Under the pieces are notes generated by a model that was not told the DNA's origin, did not search any database, and saw only the letters and a list, made by a program, of their open reading frames with translations. The position numbers were made by a program, and so were the translations under genes. Below are positions 10,701 through 19,826 of a stretch of DNA of 50,900 nt, in pieces; the stretch's first letter is position 1; each line of letters starts with the position of its first letter. The DNA comes from Bacteroidales bacterium (GTDB lineage Bacteria; Bacteroidota; Bacteroidia; Bacteroidales; G3-4614): assembly GCA_017416695.1 (NCBI GenBank), contig JAFQBL010000147.1, forward strand, positions 1-50,900, given 5' to 3'.

Positions 10701-11959
10701 CCAACATACCTTACGGTTCAAAACTATACTTCAAAGATGGAGCAACAGTTAAGAAAGGCGATGTAATCTGTGAGTGGGATCCATTCAACGCAGTAATCAT
10801 CAGTGAGGCAACAGGTAAATTGCAGTTTGAGAACGTAATTGAGGGAGTAAACTACAAACTTGAGAGCGATGAGCAAACAGGATTTAGCGAGCGAATAATC
10901 ATAGAGTCAAAAGACCACACTCGTATCCCTTCAGCATTAATTGTGGGAGCAGACGGAAATGTAGAGCGCAGTTACTCATTACCTTTAGGAGCCCACATCA
11001 TGGTAGAAGAGGGACAAGAGATAAAAGCAGGAGACATATTGGTTAAGATACCACGTGCCGTAGGAAAAGCGGGAGATATCACTGGAGGTCTTCCACGTGT
11101 AACCGAGTTGTTTGAGGCACGTAACCCATCAAATCCAGCAGTAGTAGCAGAGATTGACGGAGAGGTAAAATTAGGCAAAATCAAACGTGGTAACCGCGAG
11201 ATCATAATCACATCAAAGACAGGAGAACAAAAGAAATATTTGGTATCACTATCAAAACAAGTACTTGTACAAGAGAACGATTATGTAAGAGCAGGAACAC
11301 CATTGTCAGATGGATCAATAACACCAGCCGACATCCTTGCAATTAAAGGTCCCACAGCAGTACAAGAGTACATTGTAAACGAGGTACAAGATGTATATCG
11401 CCTACAAGGTGTGAAGATTAACGACAAACACTTTGAGGTAATTGTACGTCAGATGATGCGTAAAGTAACAATTGTCGATCCAGGAGATACACGCTTCCTT
11501 GAACAACAAATAGTTGACAAGTTAGAGTTTATGGAGGAGAACGACCGCATCTGGGGTAAAAAGGTTGTAGTAGATGCAGGAGACTCACAAAATCTACGTC
11601 CAGGACAAATCGTAACAGCACGAAAACTTCGCGAGGAGAACTCATTGTTGATACGCCGCGACCAAAAACCAGTAGAAGTACGTGATGCAGTACCTGCAAC
11701 ATCAGAACAAAACCTACAAGGAATCACACGTGCGGCACTACAAACAAGCAGTTTCATGTCAGCAGCATCGTTCCAAGAGACAACAAAAGTATTGAACGAG
11801 GCAGCAATCAACGGAAAAGTTGACAAGTTAGAGGGTATGAAAGAGAACGTAATTTGCGGACACTTGATACCAGCGGGAACAGGACAACGTCAATTCAATA
11901 AGTTGATAGTAGGAGCGCAGTCTGATTTTGATCAATTGATTAATGAGGATGAGGAGTAA
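7703..11959 (+). CDS. rpoC: DNA-directed RNA polymerase subunit beta'
   Basis: Zn-binding [23 protein letters not shown] and catalytic [12 protein letters not shown]. Length 1418 aa. Stop TAA is at 11957-11959. Confidence 0.97.
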
Positions 11960-12033
11960 AATTAGTTGTTAGAGGCTGACAATACACCAAATAGAGTAGG
12001 AGGGCTATCCAAAGGGGTAGCCCTCCTTTTTTT
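11952..12033 (+). repeat. Left copy of a perfect 82-bp direct repeat (last rpoC codon, stop and terminator)
   Basis: Base-by-base comparison shows it is identical to 13279-13360 (AGGAGTAAAATTAGTTGTTAGAGGCTGACAATACACCAAATAGAGTAGGAGGGCTATCCAAAGGGGTAGCCCTCCTTTTTTT). Confidence 0.95.
11999..12033 (+). terminator. Intrinsic terminator after rpoC (copy 1)
   Basis: GGAGGGCTA / TAGCCCTCC stem followed by T7. Confidence 0.8.
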
Positions 12034-12059: not shown

Positions 12060-12082
12060 AATTTTGTTTTCTAAACAAAATT
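12060..12082. promoter_or_regulatory. Perfect 10-bp inverted repeat (AATTTTGTTT-n3-AAACAAAATT), candidate operator of the HTH/NTase cassette
   Basis: Palindrome read directly. It lies immediately upstream of a -7 box and of the HTH gene. Confidence 0.35.
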
Positions 12083-12085
12083 GTT

Positions 12086-12093
12086 TATTTTTG
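12086..12093 (+). promoter_or_regulatory. Bacteroidota -7 promoter box TATTTTTG (TAnnTTTG consensus)
   Basis: Exact match to the TAnnTTTG consensus. It ends 4 nt before the ATG at 12098, which implies a very short or absent leader. Confidence 0.35.
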
Positions 12094-12097
12094 CAAT

Positions 12098-12616
12098 ATG
12101 AATACTACTATAGAGATACTCAAAGGATTGCATCCTGGTTTATTTTTAAAGAGAGAACTTAATAAACGTAACCTAAAAAGTGGATATTTTGCCGAGTCAA
12201 TCGGAGAATATCCGCAGACGCTTAGTGCCATTATTCGAGGTCGTAGATCTATGAATACGCCACTATCGCTACGCATTGAAAGAGCGTTAAATTTGGAAGA
12301 GGGATTATTAATGACTTTACAAGTATATTACGACATATATGAAGAGAAACGCCGCTTAGAACAAATCAATCGTTTGGATATAACAAAATTCCGTCCTATA
12401 TTATTTTGGGATACACGAATTGAGAATATCGAATTCTTTCAACACAGGCGTTATGTAATTAATAGAGTATTTGAGCGAGGCACAGAGGAAGAAATTTTGG
12501 AGACCATACGTTTTTATGGAGAAGAGACAATTCTTGAAGCTATAGATATATCAACCAAATCTCCTTTTGTTGAAAATGTAAAAAGAAATCTTAAAGCATA
12601 TCTTAACTATGAATAA
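12098..12616 (+). CDS. HigA-family HTH (antidote-type) protein with an additional ~90-aa C-terminal domain of unknown function; putative antitoxin/regulator
   Basis: The N-terminal segment LHPGLFLKRELNKRNLKSGYFAESIGEYPQTLSAIIRGRRSMNTPLSLRIERALNLEEGLLMTLQVYYD follows the HigA/VapI pattern (HPG..L..E..., ..I..G.R......L.L, ..L...YD). The C-terminal part (FWDTRIENIEFFQHRRYVINRVFERGTEEEILETIRFYGEETILEA) was not recognised. Its end overlaps the next gene by 8 nt. Confidence 0.8.
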   Translation: MNTTIEILKGLHPGLFLKRELNKRNLKSGYFAESIGEYPQTLSAIIRGRRSMNTPLSLRIERALNLEEGLLMTLQVYYDIYEEKRRLEQINRLDITKFRPILFWDTRIENIEFFQHRRYVINRVFERGTEEEILETIRFYGEETILEAIDISTKSPFVENVKRNLKAYLNYE

Positions 12617-13280
12617 CATAAAATTACAATATCAGACAGTTAAGCCAATACTTCGTTCAGTACTTGAACGTTTAATGCAAATGAAAGATTTTGATCCCTT
12701 TTGCCTTGTTGGAGGTACATCTCTTTCGTTACGTTACGGCCATCGTATGTCAGATGACATAGATCTCTTTACAGATGCAGAGTATGGCTCGTTGGATTTT
12801 TGCAAATTACAGGATATTTTGAGAAAAGAGTTTGCATATTGTTATGGCGATTATGGAACAATAGTTGGATTAGGAGTTTCATATCTTGTTGGCAATACTA
12901 AAGATGATTGTGTAAAACTCGATCTTTTTTATACCGATAAATTCATACGACCAATTACTTTGCAGGACAATATACGTATTGCATCGGTTGATGATATTGT
13001 GGCAATGAAGATGGATGTACTTTCACACGGAGGGCGAAAAAAGGATTTTTGGGATTTACATCTATTGCACAATTACTACTCTATAAAACAAATGGTTTCA
13101 TTGTATGAAGAGCGATACCCGTATGGAGTAGAACGAGAAGATTGCATAAGGGGACTCATAAATTTTAAACTTGCCGAATTTGATCCCGATCCAATATGTA
13201 TGAAGGATAAGGTTTGGCAGTTGATAAAACTCGATTTCACCGAATGGGTTGAAGATTTTGAGAAAGCAACATTAACATAG
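12609..13280 (+). CDS. AbiEii/AbiGii-type nucleotidyltransferase (putative type IV TA / abortive-infection toxin)
   Basis: The NTase-fold motif LVGGTSLSLRYGHRMSDDIDLFTD (GGT...D.D) plus the downstream VKLDLFYTD are characteristic of the DUF1814/AbiEii family. The ATG overlaps the upstream stop (ATGAATAA). Confidence 0.8.
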   Translation: MNNIKLQYQTVKPILRSVLERLMQMKDFDPFCLVGGTSLSLRYGHRMSDDIDLFTDAEYGSLDFCKLQDILRKEFAYCYGDYGTIVGLGVSYLVGNTKDDCVKLDLFYTDKFIRPITLQDNIRIASVDDIVAMKMDVLSHGGRKKDFWDLHLLHNYYSIKQMVSLYEERYPYGVEREDCIRGLINFKLAEFDPDPICMKDKVWQLIKLDFTEWVEDFEKATLT

Positions 13281-13360
13281 GAGTAAAATTAGTTGTTAGA
13301 GGCTGACAATACACCAAATAGAGTAGGAGGGCTATCCAAAGGGGTAGCCCTCCTTTTTTT
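13279..13360 (+). repeat. Right copy of the perfect 82-bp direct repeat
   Basis: Identical to 11952-12033. The TAG stop of the NTase gene (13278-13280) overlaps the first 2 nt of the repeat. Confidence 0.95.
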
Positions 13361-13655: not shown

Positions 13656-16600
13656 ATGAAGAAAAGTTACTTTTGGGGATTATTATTTGCTGTAATAGCA
13701 CTTATCCCCGGGCAAAATGTTTTTGCTCAAGTTGCTGCTGATCAATTACCAACGGGTTATTGTTCAGTTACCAAGAGAATGAATGAAAGTTGTACCGGAT
13801 CAGATTTGGACAATGTTCATTCTCATTCAATACAAGGACTTACTGCAACCTATGAGGGGTCTGAAGTATTGAGTTTGTCAGCAACTTCAACAACATTTAA
13901 CGATTTGACTTCAAGTAAACAATTTACTGTAGGTCAAGGAGGAACAATCGAAATTTCATTTACTAATGGAGCTTGGTCAAAGAACGTATGGTTCGGATTT
14001 GACTGGGACAGAGATGGAGATTTTGAAGATGTTGTTGCTGCTTATGGTGAAGAAGGTCGTGTTGGAGGAACTTCAGATCAAGGATCTGTAACAATTTATG
14101 TTCCAGATGATGCACAAGCAGGAAAATCTGTTATGCGTATCATCTCTGATGGTGTTGATTGCGCTACAAGTTGGAGCGAAGAGACTCCAATGTGTGGAAC
14201 ACACGGAACAGGTTATATTGGTTATGCAGGATCATTGCACGATGTAACAATTATTGTTGAGGAGGTAGAACTTGAAGGAGAGATTTTCACAATCTCTGTA
14301 TCTTCAAATGATGATACAATGGGTGCAGCAACAGCAGAATCAACATCTGTAAGAGATGGACGCCCTGCAACCTTGACAGCAACTGCTAATGAAGGTTACA
14401 AATTTGTAAATTGGACAGTTGAAGGAACAGAGGTTTCAACTGAAAATCCATACAAACCAATAATCACAGCCGCAACAAACTTTGTTGCAAACTTTGTTGC
14501 ACTACCAACATATGCAGTAAGCGTAGCAGCGAACAATGATGCTTTTGGTAGCGTAGAGGCTTCGGCAGAATCAGTATTTGAAGGTTCTACAGTAACACTT
14601 ACAGCAACTGCTAAAGAGGGTTATCGCTTTGAAAACTGGACAGTAGCAGGAAGTGTTGTTTCAACTGAGAATCCATATACAGCAACAATAACTGCCGAGA
14701 CAGCATTTGTTGCAAACTTCAAAGAAGTTATAACAATAGCAACTGGTAAAGAGTATCGTATTAAAGATATATCTGCAAATCAATATTTAACAGCATTTAA
14801 TCATGATGCCCACACAAGTGGTGCCTATGGTGGTGTTGGAACAAGTGCATATGATGAAGATAATGAAGATCAAATCTTTATATTTGAGGAGAGCGGAGAA
14901 AACTACAAGTTAAAAACAAAGAGTGGTTACTATATCTATGCACAAGCATGGAATGTTGACGCATTGTCTTCTCAATCATCGGAATTCAAGTTCCCCGAAA
15001 ACGGAACATCTGGCTATTACATGCAAGTATATAATACCAATAATGGTAATGCTTGGTACTATGTTAAGAATGAGTATGTAGCGGCTGCAAGTGGTTATTA
15101 CCTATTTGGCGATGCTGCTATTGGCGCTGCCGCTACTTGGGTATTGGAACCAGTGGCACCAGCAGTTGTAACATTTACTGTAACAGCAGTTCCTTCTGAC
15201 GGAGCAATGGGAGCAGTATCTCCTGAAACTTCAACAGTTGAAGAGGGACAAACAGTAACTCTTACAGCTACTGCAAACGAGGGTTATGAGTTTGTAAATT
15301 GGACTTCAGGAACAAACACATTAAGTGAGGAGAATCCTTTCACAATAACTCCAGCATCAGATACAACAATTGTTGCTAACTTCCAATTAATACCTACAAC
15401 TGTAACATATCCTATCACAGTATCATCATCAGATGAGACAATGGGTACAGTTGAAGCATCAGCAACAGAGATTGTAGAGGGCGAGACAGTAGTTCTTACA
15501 GCTACACCAGTAGCAGGATATGTATTCAAAAACTGGACAGTTGGAACAGAAGAGGTTTCAACAGAGAATCCATATACAGCAACAATAACTGCCGAGACAG
15601 CATTTGTTGCAAACTTTGAAAAAGCACCTGCCGATGATGCAACATTGGCACTTATTGAAGAGGCTAAAGCACTTATCGTAAAAGACGGAGTAGGTTATCC
15701 TTCTGCAGCAGCAAAAGCAACATTCAAAGAGGCTCTTGACGTAGCAGAGAATAATCCATATGCTGGTGCAGCAACAGCACTACAAGCAGCAATGGATGCT
15801 TACATTGCTACTGACGATATAGTATTGCCAACAGCAGATAAAGCATATGCATTTATCTCTCGTGGAAAAACTGCAAACTTCTACATGTATAACAATGTAG
15901 GAACTTTGGCATTGGCATCATACACCGAAGGAATGGAGTTGCCAGCAACAGCAATGTTCGTTTGTCAATACGATGAAGAAGCATCAAAATATGTATTCAA
16001 AACATCTGACGGAGCATATTATTTAGCATATCCTTCACCAGGTAAAGCATGGTTGAATGATAAGAGTGAAACAGGTCTTGAAACAGAGTTAAGAAGAGTA
16101 TCTCAATTTAGTATCGAGACACTTACAATAGACGGAACAAATGTAGTTGCAACACCTGAAGACTTGTTCGGATATGTTCACCTATGGGGTTATCGTGGAA
16201 ACGAAACTAAAAACGGAGTAACATCTGACTTTAATGGTCCTATGATAGTTACCTCAGCAGGAGCATTTGATGGAGCAGGAGGTGATTTCTATAACTCAAC
16301 AACATCTTCAGCATTCTCAGTAATAGAGGTTGAGTTGCCAACTCCAACATTTGCAGTATCTGCAGTATCAGCAGACGCTACAATGGGATCAGCAACAGTT
16401 AGTGCAGCAGAGGTAGAAGAGGGAGCAGAGGCAACCTTTACAGCAACTGCAAACGCTGGATACAAATTCACTTGCTGGACAGTAGGAACTGACACTATCT
16501 CAACAGAGAACCCATACACTGCTACAATTTCTGCAGCAACAGAGTTAACTGCAAACTTTGAGGCACTTGTTCCCTCAATTGTATTGACAGCAACACCTGA

Positions 16601-19600
16601 TGTAGAGCGTCAATTCTTATTCACAGTAGAGAATGAAACAAAATTATATATCGATTGGGGTAATGGCGAACTTAAAGAAACAGAAGATATTTATGAGGCA
16701 TGGAAAGAAGGTGGAGTAGTTGATCCTTCATGGGTATCAGATGGAGCAACAACAATTATCGGAACTCCTGTAGGAGAAGGAATTGTTAAGATTTATGGAG
16801 ATGGAATTACATATTTTGATTGTGGCTATAGTTCAAGTTATGCATCAAAAGTAACAGCATTAGATGTAACAAAAGCAACATCACTTATCGAGATTAACAT
16901 TTCAAGTAACGAAATTGCGGCTCTTGATTTAACTAACAATACAGCGTTGTATAAAATTACTGCAGACAATAATGCAACATTGGCAATATTAGAATTGCCC
17001 GAAAGTGAGATGAATGTTATATCAGCAGTAAATTGTGCATTAACATCAATAGACGTGTCAAAATTGACCACATTGACATCGTTGAAATTAAACAACAACA
17101 ATATAGGAAATATTGATTTAAGTGCAAATACCGCTCTTGTAACATTGGAGTTGAATAACACAGGAATCACATCAATAGATTTGAGCAATAACACAGCACT
17201 AACATCATTGTATATTAACTTCAATAATATACCAACATTAGATGTAACAGCACTAACATCATTGAAATACTTCCATTGTGAAGGATCTCAAATCTCTGAT
17301 TTGAAATGTACTGCTGTAAAATCACGTGCAAGAATAGTAAACAATAACTTGACATTGGCAACAATGCCAGCTATTACAACATCAACATTTGTATATGCAC
17401 CACAAAATGCAATGGCAATTGCAACAGAGATTAACGAGGGTGAGGAGCTTGACCTATCAGCACAAAACAACATTGTTGGATTGGCAGATGAGGCTCAAGC
17501 AACAGACTATACTTGGTATTTAGCAGACGGAACAGAGTTTACTAACTACACTGAGGCAGATGGTAAATTTGTATTTGATGTAACAGAGGACACTGAGTTG
17601 TATTGTACAATGACAACTGCTGCGTTCCCAAGCTTCTCTGGAGCAAACGCATTCAAAACTACAAACATTGTTGTTAAGAATGTAGCAGTTCCTGTTACAA
17701 TCTCAGTTGCAACAAGCAATGAGTACTACGGAACAGCTGCTATTGATGGCGTTACAGGAACTTCAACAGAGGTTATGGCTGGAGATGATGTAACAGTTGT
17801 TGCAACTCCTGCAGAGGCATTTGCCGATTATATTGTATATGAGTTTGAGGCTTGGACTGCTGGAACTGATACTATCTCAACAGAGAATCCTTATACATTC
17901 ACTGCTGCAGAGGCTCTATCATTAACAGCAAACTTCGGTTGCTATATGATGGTAAATGTAACTGCATCAGAGGGTGGTTCAGCATACATTAACGATGCTG
18001 TGGCTGAGGCAACAGTTAAATTGCCATATCAATCAAAAGCAACTCTTCATGCAGTTGCAAATGAAGGATATGCATTCTCTCACTGGACATATACGACCTC
18101 AACAGGAACTGAAACTGTTTGGAATGAATCTACAGCAGATCAACAATTTACAGTAGGTCAATATACTGCATTTACTGCATATTTCGTTCCAGTTGCAACT
18201 GAGCGTAAAGTTCAAATCCAATCTAACGATATTACAATGGGTTATGTAACTATCATATCTCCTTCACTTGGTGGCACAGGAACAGGTACTGGCACAGGAA
18301 CAGGTACTGGCACAGGCACAGGAACAGGTACAGATTCTGCTACTTCTGGTGGTGGACAAAAACCATGGATAATTACAAGTGAGGATGTAACTGCTCAAGC
18401 ATTTACAAATGGAAGTACATATGAGTTTGTAAACTGGACAATCAATGGTGAAGAGGTAGGAACTGAAACTACTTATACTTATACTGGTAGCGAGGAAGCT
18501 GTAATTCAAGCAAACTTCCGAGTTAAAGTTGTTACTTATAATGTAAACATTGCAACTGCTACAGGTCAAGAAACTTTTGGTACAGTTGAGATAGTTGGTT
18601 ACGAAGGAACTTCGGCTAATATTGAGGCTGGTACTGAAATAACTATTGTTGCAACTCCTGCTGAGGGTTATCAATTCATGAGTTGGTCAGACGCTTTAGG
18701 TTCTGATGTTTCAACAGAGGCTTCTTATACATTTACTGTAAATAGTTCTGTATATCTTGAGGCTTGGTTTGAGAGTGCACCTGTTGCAACTACTTACGCA
18801 GTATCTGTTCAAGCAGCACCAACTTCAGATTATGGTACAGTTGCTATTGAAGGTGCTGAAGGAACAACTGCTCAAATTGAGGAGAACGCTTCGGTAACAG
18901 TTGTTGCAACTCCTGCTGAGGGTTACGCTCTTGAGGGATGGTACGATATTACAGGCGCTACTCTATTAAGCACTGACCTTTCATACACATTCACTGTAAC
19001 TGCTGAAACAACAGTTGTTGCATGGTTCATGGAGGCTACACCTGAGGAGCCTGAGTATTGTATAGATTTCGGTACTTCAACTCGTTCAGGAGGTCGTTAT
19101 ATGGAATCACTTACATTCTCTGATGGTGCACATGAAACTACAGTTAATGTAAATCAACAAAATGGTTACGGTGCCCCAATTTACTTCGACAAAACAGATG
19201 TAAATGTTTCGCTTGAGGCAAGTAAAACTATCACTTCTAATGTAAACTGGCATGGAGAGTGGATGCACTCATACTTGTTTGTGGATTGGAACAACGATGG
19301 AGAGTTTACTCGTAACTTAGGTACTAACTTTGTTCCTGAAGAGGATAGCGAGTTGATAGCATTCTCATTCTGGAGTGGTGTTGACGGAAACTCTCAAGAG
19401 AATGAAGGATACAACAGTGCTGGTCAATATATAACAGGAAATGATCGTTCAGTATGGGCATTGCCAGAATTTACTATTCCTGCATCTATCGCTGAGGGTA
19501 CTTATCGTGCTCGTTTGAAAATAGACTGGAATACAGCAGATCCTTGCTCAGTAATGTCAGCAGGAGATGCTCCTTGCGTAGTTGACTTTATGATAACAGT

Positions 19601-19826
19601 AACATATCCTGATGGAATTGCAGATGCTGACGCTGATGCAGTTCAAGTATATGCTACAAATGGTGTTATCTACATCAATGGTTACGAAGGCAATGTTAAA
19701 GTTGTAAATGCTGCTGGTCAAGTTGTTAAAGACGTTATGGTTAACGGTGCTGAGCAACTTAATGTAAATGCAGGTCTTTACATGGTAGTAACAGGCGATA
19801 AAGTAACCAAAGTTGTGGTTAAGTAA
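13656..19826 (+). CDS. Giant (2056 aa) T9SS-sorted cell-surface protein: signal peptide, GEVED-like domains at both ends, about 10 InlB-B-type (Listeria-Bacteroides) repeat modules, a beta-trefoil-like insert, an LRR block, a (Gly-Thr)10 linker and a Por C-terminal sorting domain
   Basis: Signal peptide MKKSYFWGLLFAVIALIPGQNVFAQ. DW[DN]xDG[DE]F motifs (FDWDRDGDFEDV and VDWNNDGEFT). Recurrent modules such as TLTATANEGYKFVNWTVEGTEVSTENPYKPIITAATNFVANF. LRRs (LDLTNNTALYKI..., IDLSANTALVTLELNNTGITSIDLSNNTALTSL). The C-terminus VQVYATNGVIYINGYEGNVKVVNAAGQVVKDVMVNGAEQLNVNAGLYMVVTGDKVTKVVVK is typical of T9SS CTDs. Confidence 0.9.
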   Translation: MKKSYFWGLLFAVIALIPGQNVFAQVAADQLPTGYCSVTKRMNESCTGSDLDNVHSHSIQGLTATYEGSEVLSLSATSTTFNDLTSSKQFTVGQGGTIEISFTNGAWSKNVWFGFDWDRDGDFEDVVAAYGEEGRVGGTSDQGSVTIYVPDDAQAGKSVMRIISDGVDCATSWSEETPMCGTHGTGYIGYAGSLHDVTIIVEEVELEGEIFTISVSSNDDTMGAATAESTSVRDGRPATLTATANEGYKFVNWTVEGTEVSTENPYKPIITAATNFVANFVALPTYAVSVAANNDAFGSVEASAESVFEGSTVTLTATAKEGYRFENWTVAGSVVSTENPYTATITAETAFVANFKEVITIATGKEYRIKDISANQYLTAFNHDAHTSGAYGGVGTSAYDEDNEDQIFIFEESGENYKLKTKSGYYIYAQAWNVDALSSQSSEFKFPENGTSGYYMQVYNTNNGNAWYYVKNEYVAAASGYYLFGDAAIGAAATWVLEPVAPAVVTFTVTAVPSDGAMGAVSPETSTVEEGQTVTLTATANEGYEFVNWTSGTNTLSEENPFTITPASDTTIVANFQLIPTTVTYPITVSSSDETMGTVEASATEIVEGETVVLTATPVAGYVFKNWTVGTEEVSTENPYTATITAETAFVANFEKAPADDATLALIEEAKALIVKDGVGYPSAAAKATFKEALDVAENNPYAGAATALQAAMDAYIATDDIVLPTADKAYAFISRGKTANFYMYNNVGTLALASYTEGMELPATAMFVCQYDEEASKYVFKTSDGAYYLAYPSPGKAWLNDKSETGLETELRRVSQFSIETLTIDGTNVVATPEDLFGYVHLWGYRGNETKNGVTSDFNGPMIVTSAGAFDGAGGDFYNSTTSSAFSVIEVELPTPTFAVSAVSADATMGSATVSAAEVEEGAEATFTATANAGYKFTCWTVGTDTISTENPYTATISAATELTANFEALVPSIVLTATPDVERQFLFTVENETKLYIDWGNGELKETEDIYEAWKEGGVVDPSWVSDGATTIIGTPVGEGIVKIYGDGITYFDCGYSSSYASKVTALDVTKATSLIEINISSNEIAALDLTNNTALYKITADNNATLAILELPESEMNVISAVNCALTSIDVSKLTTLTSLKLNNNNIGNIDLSANTALVTLELNNTGITSIDLSNNTALTSLYINFNNIPTLDVTALTSLKYFHCEGSQISDLKCTAVKSRARIVNNNLTLATMPAITTSTFVYAPQNAMAIATEINEGEELDLSAQNNIVGLADEAQATDYTWYLADGTEFTNYTEADGKFVFDVTEDTELYCTMTTAAFPSFSGANAFKTTNIVVKNVAVPVTISVATSNEYYGTAAIDGVTGTSTEVMAGDDVTVVATPAEAFADYIVYEFEAWTAGTDTISTENPYTFTAAEALSLTANFGCYMMVNVTASEGGSAYINDAVAEATVKLPYQSKATLHAVANEGYAFSHWTYTTSTGTETVWNESTADQQFTVGQYTAFTAYFVPVATERKVQIQSNDITMGYVTIISPSLGGTGTGTGTGTGTGTGTGTGTDSATSGGGQKPWIITSEDVTAQAFTNGSTYEFVNWTINGEEVGTETTYTYTGSEEAVIQANFRVKVVTYNVNIATATGQETFGTVEIVGYEGTSANIEAGTEITIVATPAEGYQFMSWSDALGSDVSTEASYTFTVNSSVYLEAWFESAPVATTYAVSVQAAPTSDYGTVAIEGAEGTTAQIEENASVTVVATPAEGYALEGWYDITGATLLSTDLSYTFTVTAETTVVAWFMEATPEEPEYCIDFGTSTRSGGRYMESLTFSDGAHETTVNVNQQNGYGAPIYFDKTDVNVSLEASKTITSNVNWHGEWMHSYLFVDWNNDGEFTRNLGTNFVPEEDSELIAFSFWSGVDGNSQENEGYNSAGQYITGNDRSVWALPEFTIPASIAEGTYRARLKIDWNTADPCSVMSAGDAPCVVDFMITVTYPDGIADADADAVQVYATNGVIYINGYEGNVKVVNAAGQVVKDVMVNGAEQLNVNAGLYMVVTGDKVTKVVVK
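16842..17310 (+). repeat. Leucine-rich-repeat block within the giant protein (approximate bounds)
   Basis: About 22-24-aa periodic L..L.L..N.I..IDL units in the translation. Confidence 0.7.
18273..18332 (+). repeat. In-frame (GGN-ACN)10 repeat encoding (Gly-Thr)10, including an 18-nt unit GGCACAGGAACAGGTACT repeated twice
   Basis: Codons read directly: ggc aca gga aca ggt act ggc aca gga aca ggt act ggc aca ggc aca gga aca ggt aca, followed by GAT TCT GCT (D-S-A). Confidence 0.95.

Follow-up and report, generated by a model that had tools for sequence, protein, structure and literature searches.

Nucleotidyltransferases (NTases) of the DUF1814/AbiEii superfamily are among the most abundant protein families of bacterial defence and toxin-antitoxin (TA) systems, and the understanding of how these toxins are neutralised is under revision, moving from a type IV to a type VII mechanism. 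Partner families known so far are COG5340 (AbiEi, MenA3, RlegA, SanaA, SdenA), COG4861, and the small MenA1, and exchange of the antitoxin is a familiar theme. Here, we analyse a two-gene module on a 50,900-nucleotide stretch of a Bacteroidales metagenome-assembled genome (contig JAFQBL010000147.1, assembly GCA_017416695.1; referred to as “the window”). The module is composed of two open reading frames (ORFs), ORF1 and ORF2, which encode a protein with a HigA-type helix-turn-helix (HTH) and an AbiEii-family NTase, respectively. An earlier reading of the same DNA, made from the sequence without database searches (the “original prediction”), had proposed the pair as an undescribed, AbiE-like module.

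For the AbiE system, four motifs have been defined in the toxin AbiEii, the toxicity of which requires the residues G49, R63, D67, D69, K173, R180, and D192 (Dy et al., 2014; PMC3985639). According to a 2026 preprint, AbiEi binds AbiEii and induces auto-phosphorylation at T65, which is located two residues before D67 and is equivalent to T39 of MenT1 and S78 of MenT3. The unrelated antitoxins MenA1 (small) and MenA3 (COG5340) both neutralise via auto-phosphorylation of a Ser/Thr beside the DxD motif (2026 preprint). With this, the preprint moves AbiE to type VII, and the type IV label under which the original prediction had placed it is now contested.

The HigA-HTH–DUF6922 protein described below was not found among the known DUF1814 partners in the literature searched. 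It is, in our view, reasonably probable that the locus represents an autoregulated, mobile two-gene TA-type module of the DUF1814 (AbiEii/MenT) superfamily, in which this protein replaces the COG5340/AbiEi antitoxin.

The Nucleotidyltransferase ORF2

The assignment of the downstream gene to the AbiEii family, for which the original prediction had asked for profile searches, holds. ORF2 matches Pfam AbiEii (PF08843) with an E value of 1.4e-19 and 71.4 bits (cutoff 22.5), residues 18–214 covering positions 2–227 of the 238-position model, and it matches several AbiEii models of PADLOC (best PDLC02307, E 4e-11); in NCBIfam, there was no equivalog match. In the protein collection, 4232 homologs of ORF2 are detectable. 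A family profile of ORF2 searched against PDB sequences retrieved JHP933 (232 aa) as the sole solved relative (E 4e-6, residues 29–165), while MenT was not reached at E ≤ 10. The length of 223 aa, remarked upon earlier as short for the family, is real, but it does not reflect a truncation, because ORF2 fills nearly the whole Pfam model and JHP933 itself has only 232 aa; judged from these alignments, ORF2 belongs to a short size class of the DUF1814 superfamily.

Alignment shows that ORF2 retains all four AbiEii catalytic motifs (Table 1), so that the predicted active site is intact. Conservation was assessed on 95 non-redundant pairs with a mean toxin p-distance of 0.43. In this set, G35, R46, S48, D50, D52, D105, K134, R143, D146, and D149 are invariant, and G36 and K145 are each kept in 94 of 95 toxin sequences; invariant residues map onto the AbiEii toxicity residues R63, D67, D69, K173, R180, and D192. 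The position of S48, two residues before D50, is in the register of AbiEii T65 and MenT3 S78 in all 95 homologs. An invariant serine in the phosphoacceptor register makes a phosphorylation-based control of ORF2 plausible.

At its 3′ end, the TAG stop codon of ORF2 (13278–13280) spans the junction between cassette and flanking repeat. The tail of the protein is a few residues longer than that of homologs with 213–220 aa, and the copy at locus L171 has 225 aa; the native 3′ end of ORF2 may have been replaced upon insertion.

The HigA-HTH–DUF6922 Protein ORF1

The N-terminal part of ORF1, with residues 8–89 resembling HigA, matches the HigA family TIGR02607 (E 1.7e-10; 40.6 bits, under the cutoff of 47.7) and Pfam HTH_3 (22.3 bits, slightly under the cutoff of 23), as well as the sequence of the HigA structure 4mcx in PDB (E 5e-7). 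The AlphaFold2 (AF2) model of ORF1 is all-helical with a predicted local distance difference test (pLDDT) score of 91.3, and a Foldseek search of the full-length model against PDB and BFVD returned HigA structures with a TMt of ~0.78, covering the N-terminal half only. Together, these matches support the HigA-type HTH of the original prediction, two of the profile scores lying below their cutoffs. The C-terminal part, in contrast, which had been considered unassignable, corresponds to a catalogued domain: the full Pfam DUF6922 model (PF21956; positions 1–52 of 52) is matched with an E value of 2.5e-20 and 72.1 bits (cutoff 27). Pfam lists DUF6922 as a domain of unknown function, and our literature search found no paper naming DUF6922 or PF21956. 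In non-redundant homologs, the invariant polar residues of this domain are D105, R123, E132, and Y140. As had been proposed, the partner of the NTase is not a canonical AbiEi, for which ORF1 gave no match either in Pfam (at E ≤ 1, HTH_3 and DUF6922 only) or among the PADLOC models.

ORF1 has 317 detectable homologs in the protein collection, mostly of 170–175 aa. NCBI annotates ORF1 (IJA09_06785) from an internal Met onwards as a “hypothetical protein” of 121 aa, a gene call from which the whole HigA-type HTH is missing. In cultured species, RefSeq labels the ORF1 copies “helix-turn-helix transcriptional regulator” or “HigA family antidote” and the ORF2 copies “nucleotidyl transferase AbiEii/AbiGii toxin family protein”.

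Conserved Pairing and Distribution

The pairing was followed in two surveys with 160 loci in total, one anchored on the antitoxin (one genome per species, 80 loci) and one anchored on DUF6922 in metagenomes (80 loci), for which the DUF6922 motifs of a 10-sequence alignment served as the only anchor. In both surveys, an NTase is found directly downstream in ~80–90% of the assessable loci. In the antitoxin-anchored survey, a full-length or near-full-length NTase ORF follows with an overlap or a gap of a few nucleotides in 59 of 73 assessable loci; a truncated or frameshifted toxin lies beside an intact antitoxin in seven of the 80 loci, and another seven are orphan antitoxins with no toxin. Contig ends cut seven further loci, in six of which the start of the toxin is still visible. 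The loci fall into several orders of Bacteroidota, the taxa covered being Bacteroidaceae, Muribaculaceae, Rikenellaceae/Alistipes, Paludibacteraceae, Parabacteroides, Barnesiella, Chitinophagaceae, Pedobacter, and Prolixibacteraceae. In the metagenome survey, DUF6922 is fused to a HigA-type HTH in 75 of 80 loci, and an NTase or part of it adjoins in 65 of the 72 fused loci that are not cut by a contig end. A DUF6922 gene was also found upstream in toxin-anchored look-ups. The co-occurrence survey across Bacteroidota that had been suggested as a check, thus, finds the pairing to recur.

Plasmid copies are present in Phocaeicola vulgatus and P. dorei (antitoxin gene and NTase annotated under the match) and in Microscilla, while on a Bacteroides fragilis plasmid only the antitoxin gene lies under the match; the P. 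vulgatus plasmid copy is located near parG and a recombinase gene. Some homologous loci adjoin genes for type I restriction-modification (R-M), a DNA methylase, HipA, an ATPase, or an integrase. ORF1 and ORF2 diverge together (r 0.83–0.85).

The module was initially regarded as undescribed. This stands insofar as the literature search found no description of a HigA-HTH–DUF6922 protein paired with a DUF1814 toxin; at the same time, the pair is a widespread, conserved family with generic RefSeq labels and a Pfam DUF entry. The HigA-HTH–DUF6922 plus AbiEii pair is, hence, common in Bacteroidota, generically annotated, and undescribed as a system.

Several individual loci differ from this pattern. 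In the type strains of Parabacteroides goldsteinii and P. gordonii (L056, 4550–4872; L057, 4506–4727), the antitoxin is intact and the NTase frameshifted or truncated, while in P. segnis (L055) both are intact, so that these cultured strains provide a natural comparison. Locus L010 (JAFVUY010000262.1), binned as “Bacilli bacterium”, encodes an antitoxin 77% identical to that of the window and no toxin; mis-binning of a Bacteroidales contig is the probable cause, and not cross-phylum transfer. Four loci of the metagenome survey (L104, L107, L108, L127) contain a stand-alone DUF6922 with neither an HTH nor an adjacent NTase, and P0250 is a 167-aa protein with two DUF6922 repeats; such genes may be orphan antitoxin remnants or reflect another use of the domain. 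True stand-alone DUF6922 antitoxins were considered and rejected, as many of the short database entries inspected are internal-Met starts of the fused protein or fragments, and the four stand-alone loci are toxin-free.

Operon Structure, Candidate Promoter, and Candidate Operator

The gene order is bicistronic with the putative antitoxin first. The 8-nt overlap of the two genes, noted already in the original prediction, is confirmed by the ORF coordinates and the sequence (ATGAATAA) and is consistent with translational coupling; small overlaps or gaps of a few nucleotides recur in the homologous loci.

Promoters of Bacteroides follow the consensus TTTG at −33 and TAnnTTTG at −7. A candidate promoter of this type precedes ORF1 and ends 4 nt before its ATG, implying a leaderless or near-leaderless mRNA; the “TTTATTTTTGC” block preceding the ATG is conserved across the loci. 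A sigma-70 promoter scan found six sites versus a shuffle expectation of 9.0, the sigma-70 consensus being unsuited to Bacteroidota, and Rfam gave only sub-threshold, terminator-driven matches between positions 11900 and 13700.

The candidate operator, a palindrome of the form TAAACA-N4-TGTTTA, occurs as a single copy within the window. Of 135 distinct sequences lying upstream at homologous loci, 112 contain it without a mismatch and 121 with no more than one; for comparison, 151 of 8156 background windows contain the palindrome. Its end is most often located 10 nt ahead of the ATG. An extra upstream half-site gives rise to a second perfect palindrome, and the resulting three tandem half-sites (12060–12087) could allow cooperative binding. 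Since the palindrome is kept across proteins that are only 45–60% identical, it constitutes the strongest new evidence for the HTH being an operator-binding autorepressor, and, together with its location over the promoter, this conservation points to autoregulation by ORF1.

Cassette Boundaries and Mobility

The pair is bounded by two 82-bp direct repeats that are 100% identical and spaced by 1327 bp. Each contains a terminator hairpin with a 13-bp stem, eight GC pairs, and a T-run, according to a terminator scan. Among contigs encoding an identical 1418-aa RpoC, the cassette is present in L169–L173 and L175 and absent from L174 (ERZ25021427, 4625–4710); ERZ25021425 is one of the occupied assemblies. 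L174 is an exact empty site, in which a single 82-bp unit with one single-nucleotide polymorphism is directly followed by the right flank. The distance from rpoC to the next gene is 370 nt in L174 versus 1697 nt at the occupied site, the difference being exactly 1327 nt. This exact presence or absence implies either that the cassette was recently gained or that a deletion occurred between the repeats; “excisable”, as the cassette had been called, is a fair description in view of the perfect repeats and the empty site. Identical or nearly identical copies of the cassette are present in nine or more independent assemblies.

At least seven other cassettes have flanking direct repeats of 30–55 bp (Table 1), most of which, judged by eye, resemble terminator hairpins. 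Their local sequence differs per locus, which points to duplication of the target and not to an attachment site common to all. The cassette itself contains no recombinase gene. Taken together, the boundaries suggest an insertion process by which the target terminator is duplicated. An interpretation of the hairpins as IS200/IS605-like ends or integron attC sites was rejected, given that the empty site keeps exactly one 82-bp copy and that the repeats differ between loci and resemble ordinary intrinsic terminators.

The contig is chromosomal, with core genes around the cassette. Upstream, a 1418-aa product with RNA polymerase Rpb1 domains (rpoC) is preceded by a 1267–1270-aa product matching Rpb2 domains (rpoB), and between the rpoC stop codon (11959) and ORF1 (12098) the forward strand has no ORF of at least 40 aa. 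Within the window, the module stands alone behind rpoC, outside any island. Downstream, a 2056-aa ORF follows (13656–19826), which contains a (Gly-Thr)n tract at 18272–18333 coded by an imperfect 6-nt repeat; its length differs among the otherwise near-identical assemblies L169–L174 (2056, 2059, 2139, 2149, and 2160 aa).

Table 1. Coordinates of the module, its candidate regulatory sites, and flanking repeats; positions refer to the window unless a residue range or another locus is given.
Feature	Position	Strand	Description
ORF1	12098–12616	+	172 aa; putative antitoxin and autorepressor
HigA-type HTH of ORF1	residues 1–~90		long linker helix at residues 70–90; basis: profile and fold matches
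DUF6922 of ORF1	residues 98–149 (nt 12389–12544)	+	helical tail to residue 169
ORF2	12609–13280	+	223 aa; DUF1814/AbiEii nucleotidyltransferase, putative toxin
ORF1/ORF2 overlap	12609–12616	+	8 nt, ATGAATAA; ORF2 ATG at 12609, ORF1 TAA ends at 12616
ORF2 motifs I and II	nt 12711–12770	+	G35-G36 ... R46-x-S48-x-D50-x-D52; definitions PMC3985639
Further ORF2 motifs		+	K103-L-D105; motif III K134...R143; motif IV K145-D146-x-x-D149; definitions PMC3985639
Candidate Bacteroidota-type promoter	12063–12093	+	TTTG 12063–12066, 19-nt spacer, TAnnTTTG (TATTTTTG) 12086–12093
Candidate operator	12072–12087	+	palindrome TAAACAAAATTGTTTA (TAAACA-N4-TGTTTA), 16 bp, overlaps −7 box
Second perfect palindrome	12060–12082	+	AATTTTGTTT-TCT-AAACAAAATT, via extra upstream half-site
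Left 82-bp direct repeat	11952–12033	+	last rpoC codons, stop, and intrinsic terminator; hairpin 11998–12027, then T-run
Right 82-bp direct repeat	13279–13360	+	terminator hairpin 13325–13354; begins inside ORF2 stop codon (T/AG)
Flanking repeats, L043	209–256/1518–1565		
Flanking repeats, L042	3878–3928/5189–5239		
Flanking repeats, L050	3864–3918/5320–5374		
Flanking repeats, L011	3845–3886/5212–5253		
Flanking repeats, L009	3836–3871/5199–5234		
Flanking repeats, L013	3868–3897/5237–5266		
Flanking repeats, L036	3405–3440/5216–5251		

Proposed Mode of Action and Alternative Explanations

In an autoregulated TA-type module, the HTH of ORF1 would, as comparative sequence analysis suggests, bind TAAACA-N4-TGTTTA over the −7 box and repress the operon. 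ORF1 and ORF2 are predicted to be made from one short, terminator-insulated transcript, their translation being coupled via the 8-nt overlap. The DUF6922 half would neutralise ORF2 through direct contact, for which the likeliest route is that reported for AbiE and MenAT1/3, i.e., a repositioning of Ser48 that leads to auto-phosphorylation of ORF2; simple sequestration of ORF2 would be the alternative. Upon loss or titration of ORF1 (e.g., by loss of the cassette or plasmid, or by phage-induced shut-off), ORF2 would be freed and, in line with the biochemistry of the family, would add nucleotides to tRNA 3′ ends and stall translation. The cassette is dispensable and can be precisely gained or lost at the 82-bp repeats, with relatives on plasmids and near R-M genes, methylases, and integrases. 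We infer the toxicity of ORF2, its tRNA nucleotidylation activity, and its neutralisation by DUF6922 (by binding, Ser48 phosphorylation, or both) by analogy; the population behaviour of the family is TA-like because of orphan antitoxins, decayed toxins beside intact antitoxins, presence/absence polymorphism, and plasmid copies. A more far-reaching, joint proposal, namely that DUF6922 is a structurally unrelated antitoxin class acting through Ser48 auto-phosphorylation and that the cassette spreads without a recombinase of its own, inserting directly behind intrinsic terminators and thereby duplicating them (30–82 bp), is on balance doubtful.

Several points weigh against a TA module of this kind. 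The AF2 model of ORF2 is poor (pLDDT 69) and the Foldseek search from it was uninformative. The Foldseek search of the full-length ORF1 model against PDB and BFVD gave no structural relative for the DUF6922 half, and a DUF6922 profile found only chance-level Pumilio and CK2 matches among PDB sequences (E ≥ 0.027); with no relative of known function found, the case for DUF6922 as the neutralising domain is one from architecture. In a mirror-tree analysis, the co-variation of DUF6922 with the toxin was not discriminated from that of the HTH (partial r 0.60 vs. 0.57). The surveys were mostly antitoxin-anchored and, hence, blind to the frequency of orphan toxins, and searches of the phage collection and PHROGs yielded no phage-borne copies. 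Finally, DUF1814 includes the non-toxin enzymes ANT(2″)-Ia and JHP933 (2026 preprint), and it is JHP933 that is the closest solved relative of ORF2.

The latter point leads to the possibility that there is no TA pair at all, and that ORF1 is a local transcription factor for a benign or adaptive DUF1814 NTase involved in the nucleotidylation of small molecules or antibiotics or in RNA maturation, with DUF6922 serving as a ligand-sensing or oligomerisation domain. Besides the two enzymes just named, neither of which has been described as a TA toxin, this explanation would accommodate the lack of an NCBIfam equivalog match for ORF2, and the invariant residues of DUF6922 could equally form a ligand site. 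We consider it quite unlikely given the gene overlap, the strict antitoxin-first order, and the operator-like site over the promoter, to which the patchy mobile distribution, the decay of toxins beside intact regulators, and the exact gain or loss between strains are to be added; moreover, ORF2 keeps all AbiEii toxicity residues, plus a Ser at the phosphoacceptor position. Very improbable is a decaying remnant or hitch-hiker, i.e., a non-functional cassette recently duplicated or inserted behind rpoC. While the ORF2 stop codon formed at the repeat junction, the tail extending beyond that of homologs, and the 121-aa hypothetical protein in the NCBI annotation would fit such a remnant, both ORFs are of full length and align end-to-end with hundreds of homologs, their invariant residues, the promoter, and the operator-like site are intact, and the conservation of the cassette across independent assemblies is not that expected of a remnant. 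An abortive-infection or anti-phage system proper, in which phage resistance instead of addiction or stabilisation would be the main role, is compatible with a TA-type module and differs from it only in the selected role. The toxin family is known from the literature to confer the phage phenotypes of AbiE and SanaTA/RlegTA, and the R-M, methylase, HipA, and ATPase neighbours of some homologs resemble defence islands. However, the module of the window is not part of an island, PADLOC would not call AbiE because no AbiEi component was detected, AbiE of Streptococcus agalactiae gave no protection against 32 coliphages (literature), and plasmid copies near partition genes suit stabilisation equally well; as the main role of the module, anti-phage defence is, thus, unlikely.

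Significance

The pair offers a natural test of toxin control: if any binding partner triggers auto-phosphorylation of the toxin, this pair should show it. If true, the Ser48 route would stand beside COG5340 and MenA1 as a third independent solution, and DUF6922, for which the present proposal is the first functional hypothesis, would obtain its first function. Generic or truncated annotations in genomes of gut Bacteroidales would be corrected. Tractable material is available in the form of cultured Parabacteroides and Phocaeicola containing the pair and of the natural occupied and empty alleles downstream of rpoC. Furthermore, the terminator-duplicating signature of insertion hints at an uncharacterised mobility route of small TA cassettes.

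Comparison with Known Systems

Residues 8–87 of ORF1 are ~30% identical to HigA of Proteus vulgaris (PDB 4mct/6chv), an operator-binding antitoxin, with which ORF1 shares its predicted N-terminal fold. In contrast to the toxin-first order of higBA, the module is antitoxin-first, contains the extra DUF6922 domain, and has an NTase as partner; lacking a HigB, it does not belong to the HigBA systems, with rpoC and a terminator located upstream and the downstream NTase as the sole partner. JHP933 of Helicobacter pylori (PDB 4O8S/4OK0) is, like ORF2, a short DUF1814 NTase and has the R-x-S-x-D-x-D, KL[DE], and K...R..D..DL motifs in common with it. The two differ in that discussion of JHP933 treats it as a virulence-associated plasticity-zone protein, not as a TA toxin paired with a DUF6922 protein, and their identity is low.

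The MenAT systems of Mycobacterium tuberculosis (MenA1-MenT1 and MenA3-MenT3; type VII) likewise comprise DUF1814 toxins, and Ser48 of ORF2 occupies the phosphoacceptor position; ORF1, however, has no detected sequence or structural relationship to any MenA. From AbiE, as known from Lactococcus lactis pNP40 and S. agalactiae, the module differs in the HigA/Xre-type HTH_3 of ORF1, which takes the place of the winged HTH of AbiEi, in the all-helical DUF6922 (a core of 52 residues, ~75 with the helical tail), where AbiEi has the C-terminal domain of COG5340, and in ORF2, which is ~60–70 residues shorter and, in profile searches, nearer to JHP933 than to the MenT structures. Judged by sequence, the module falls outside AbiE on the antitoxin component. 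With AbiE it shares a DUF1814 NTase toxin with motifs I–IV in the same order and register, a bicistronic, antitoxin-first operon, a two-domain antitoxin with an N-terminal DNA-binding and a C-terminal, presumed toxin-acting part, inverted repeats at the promoter, and carriage on mobile elements.

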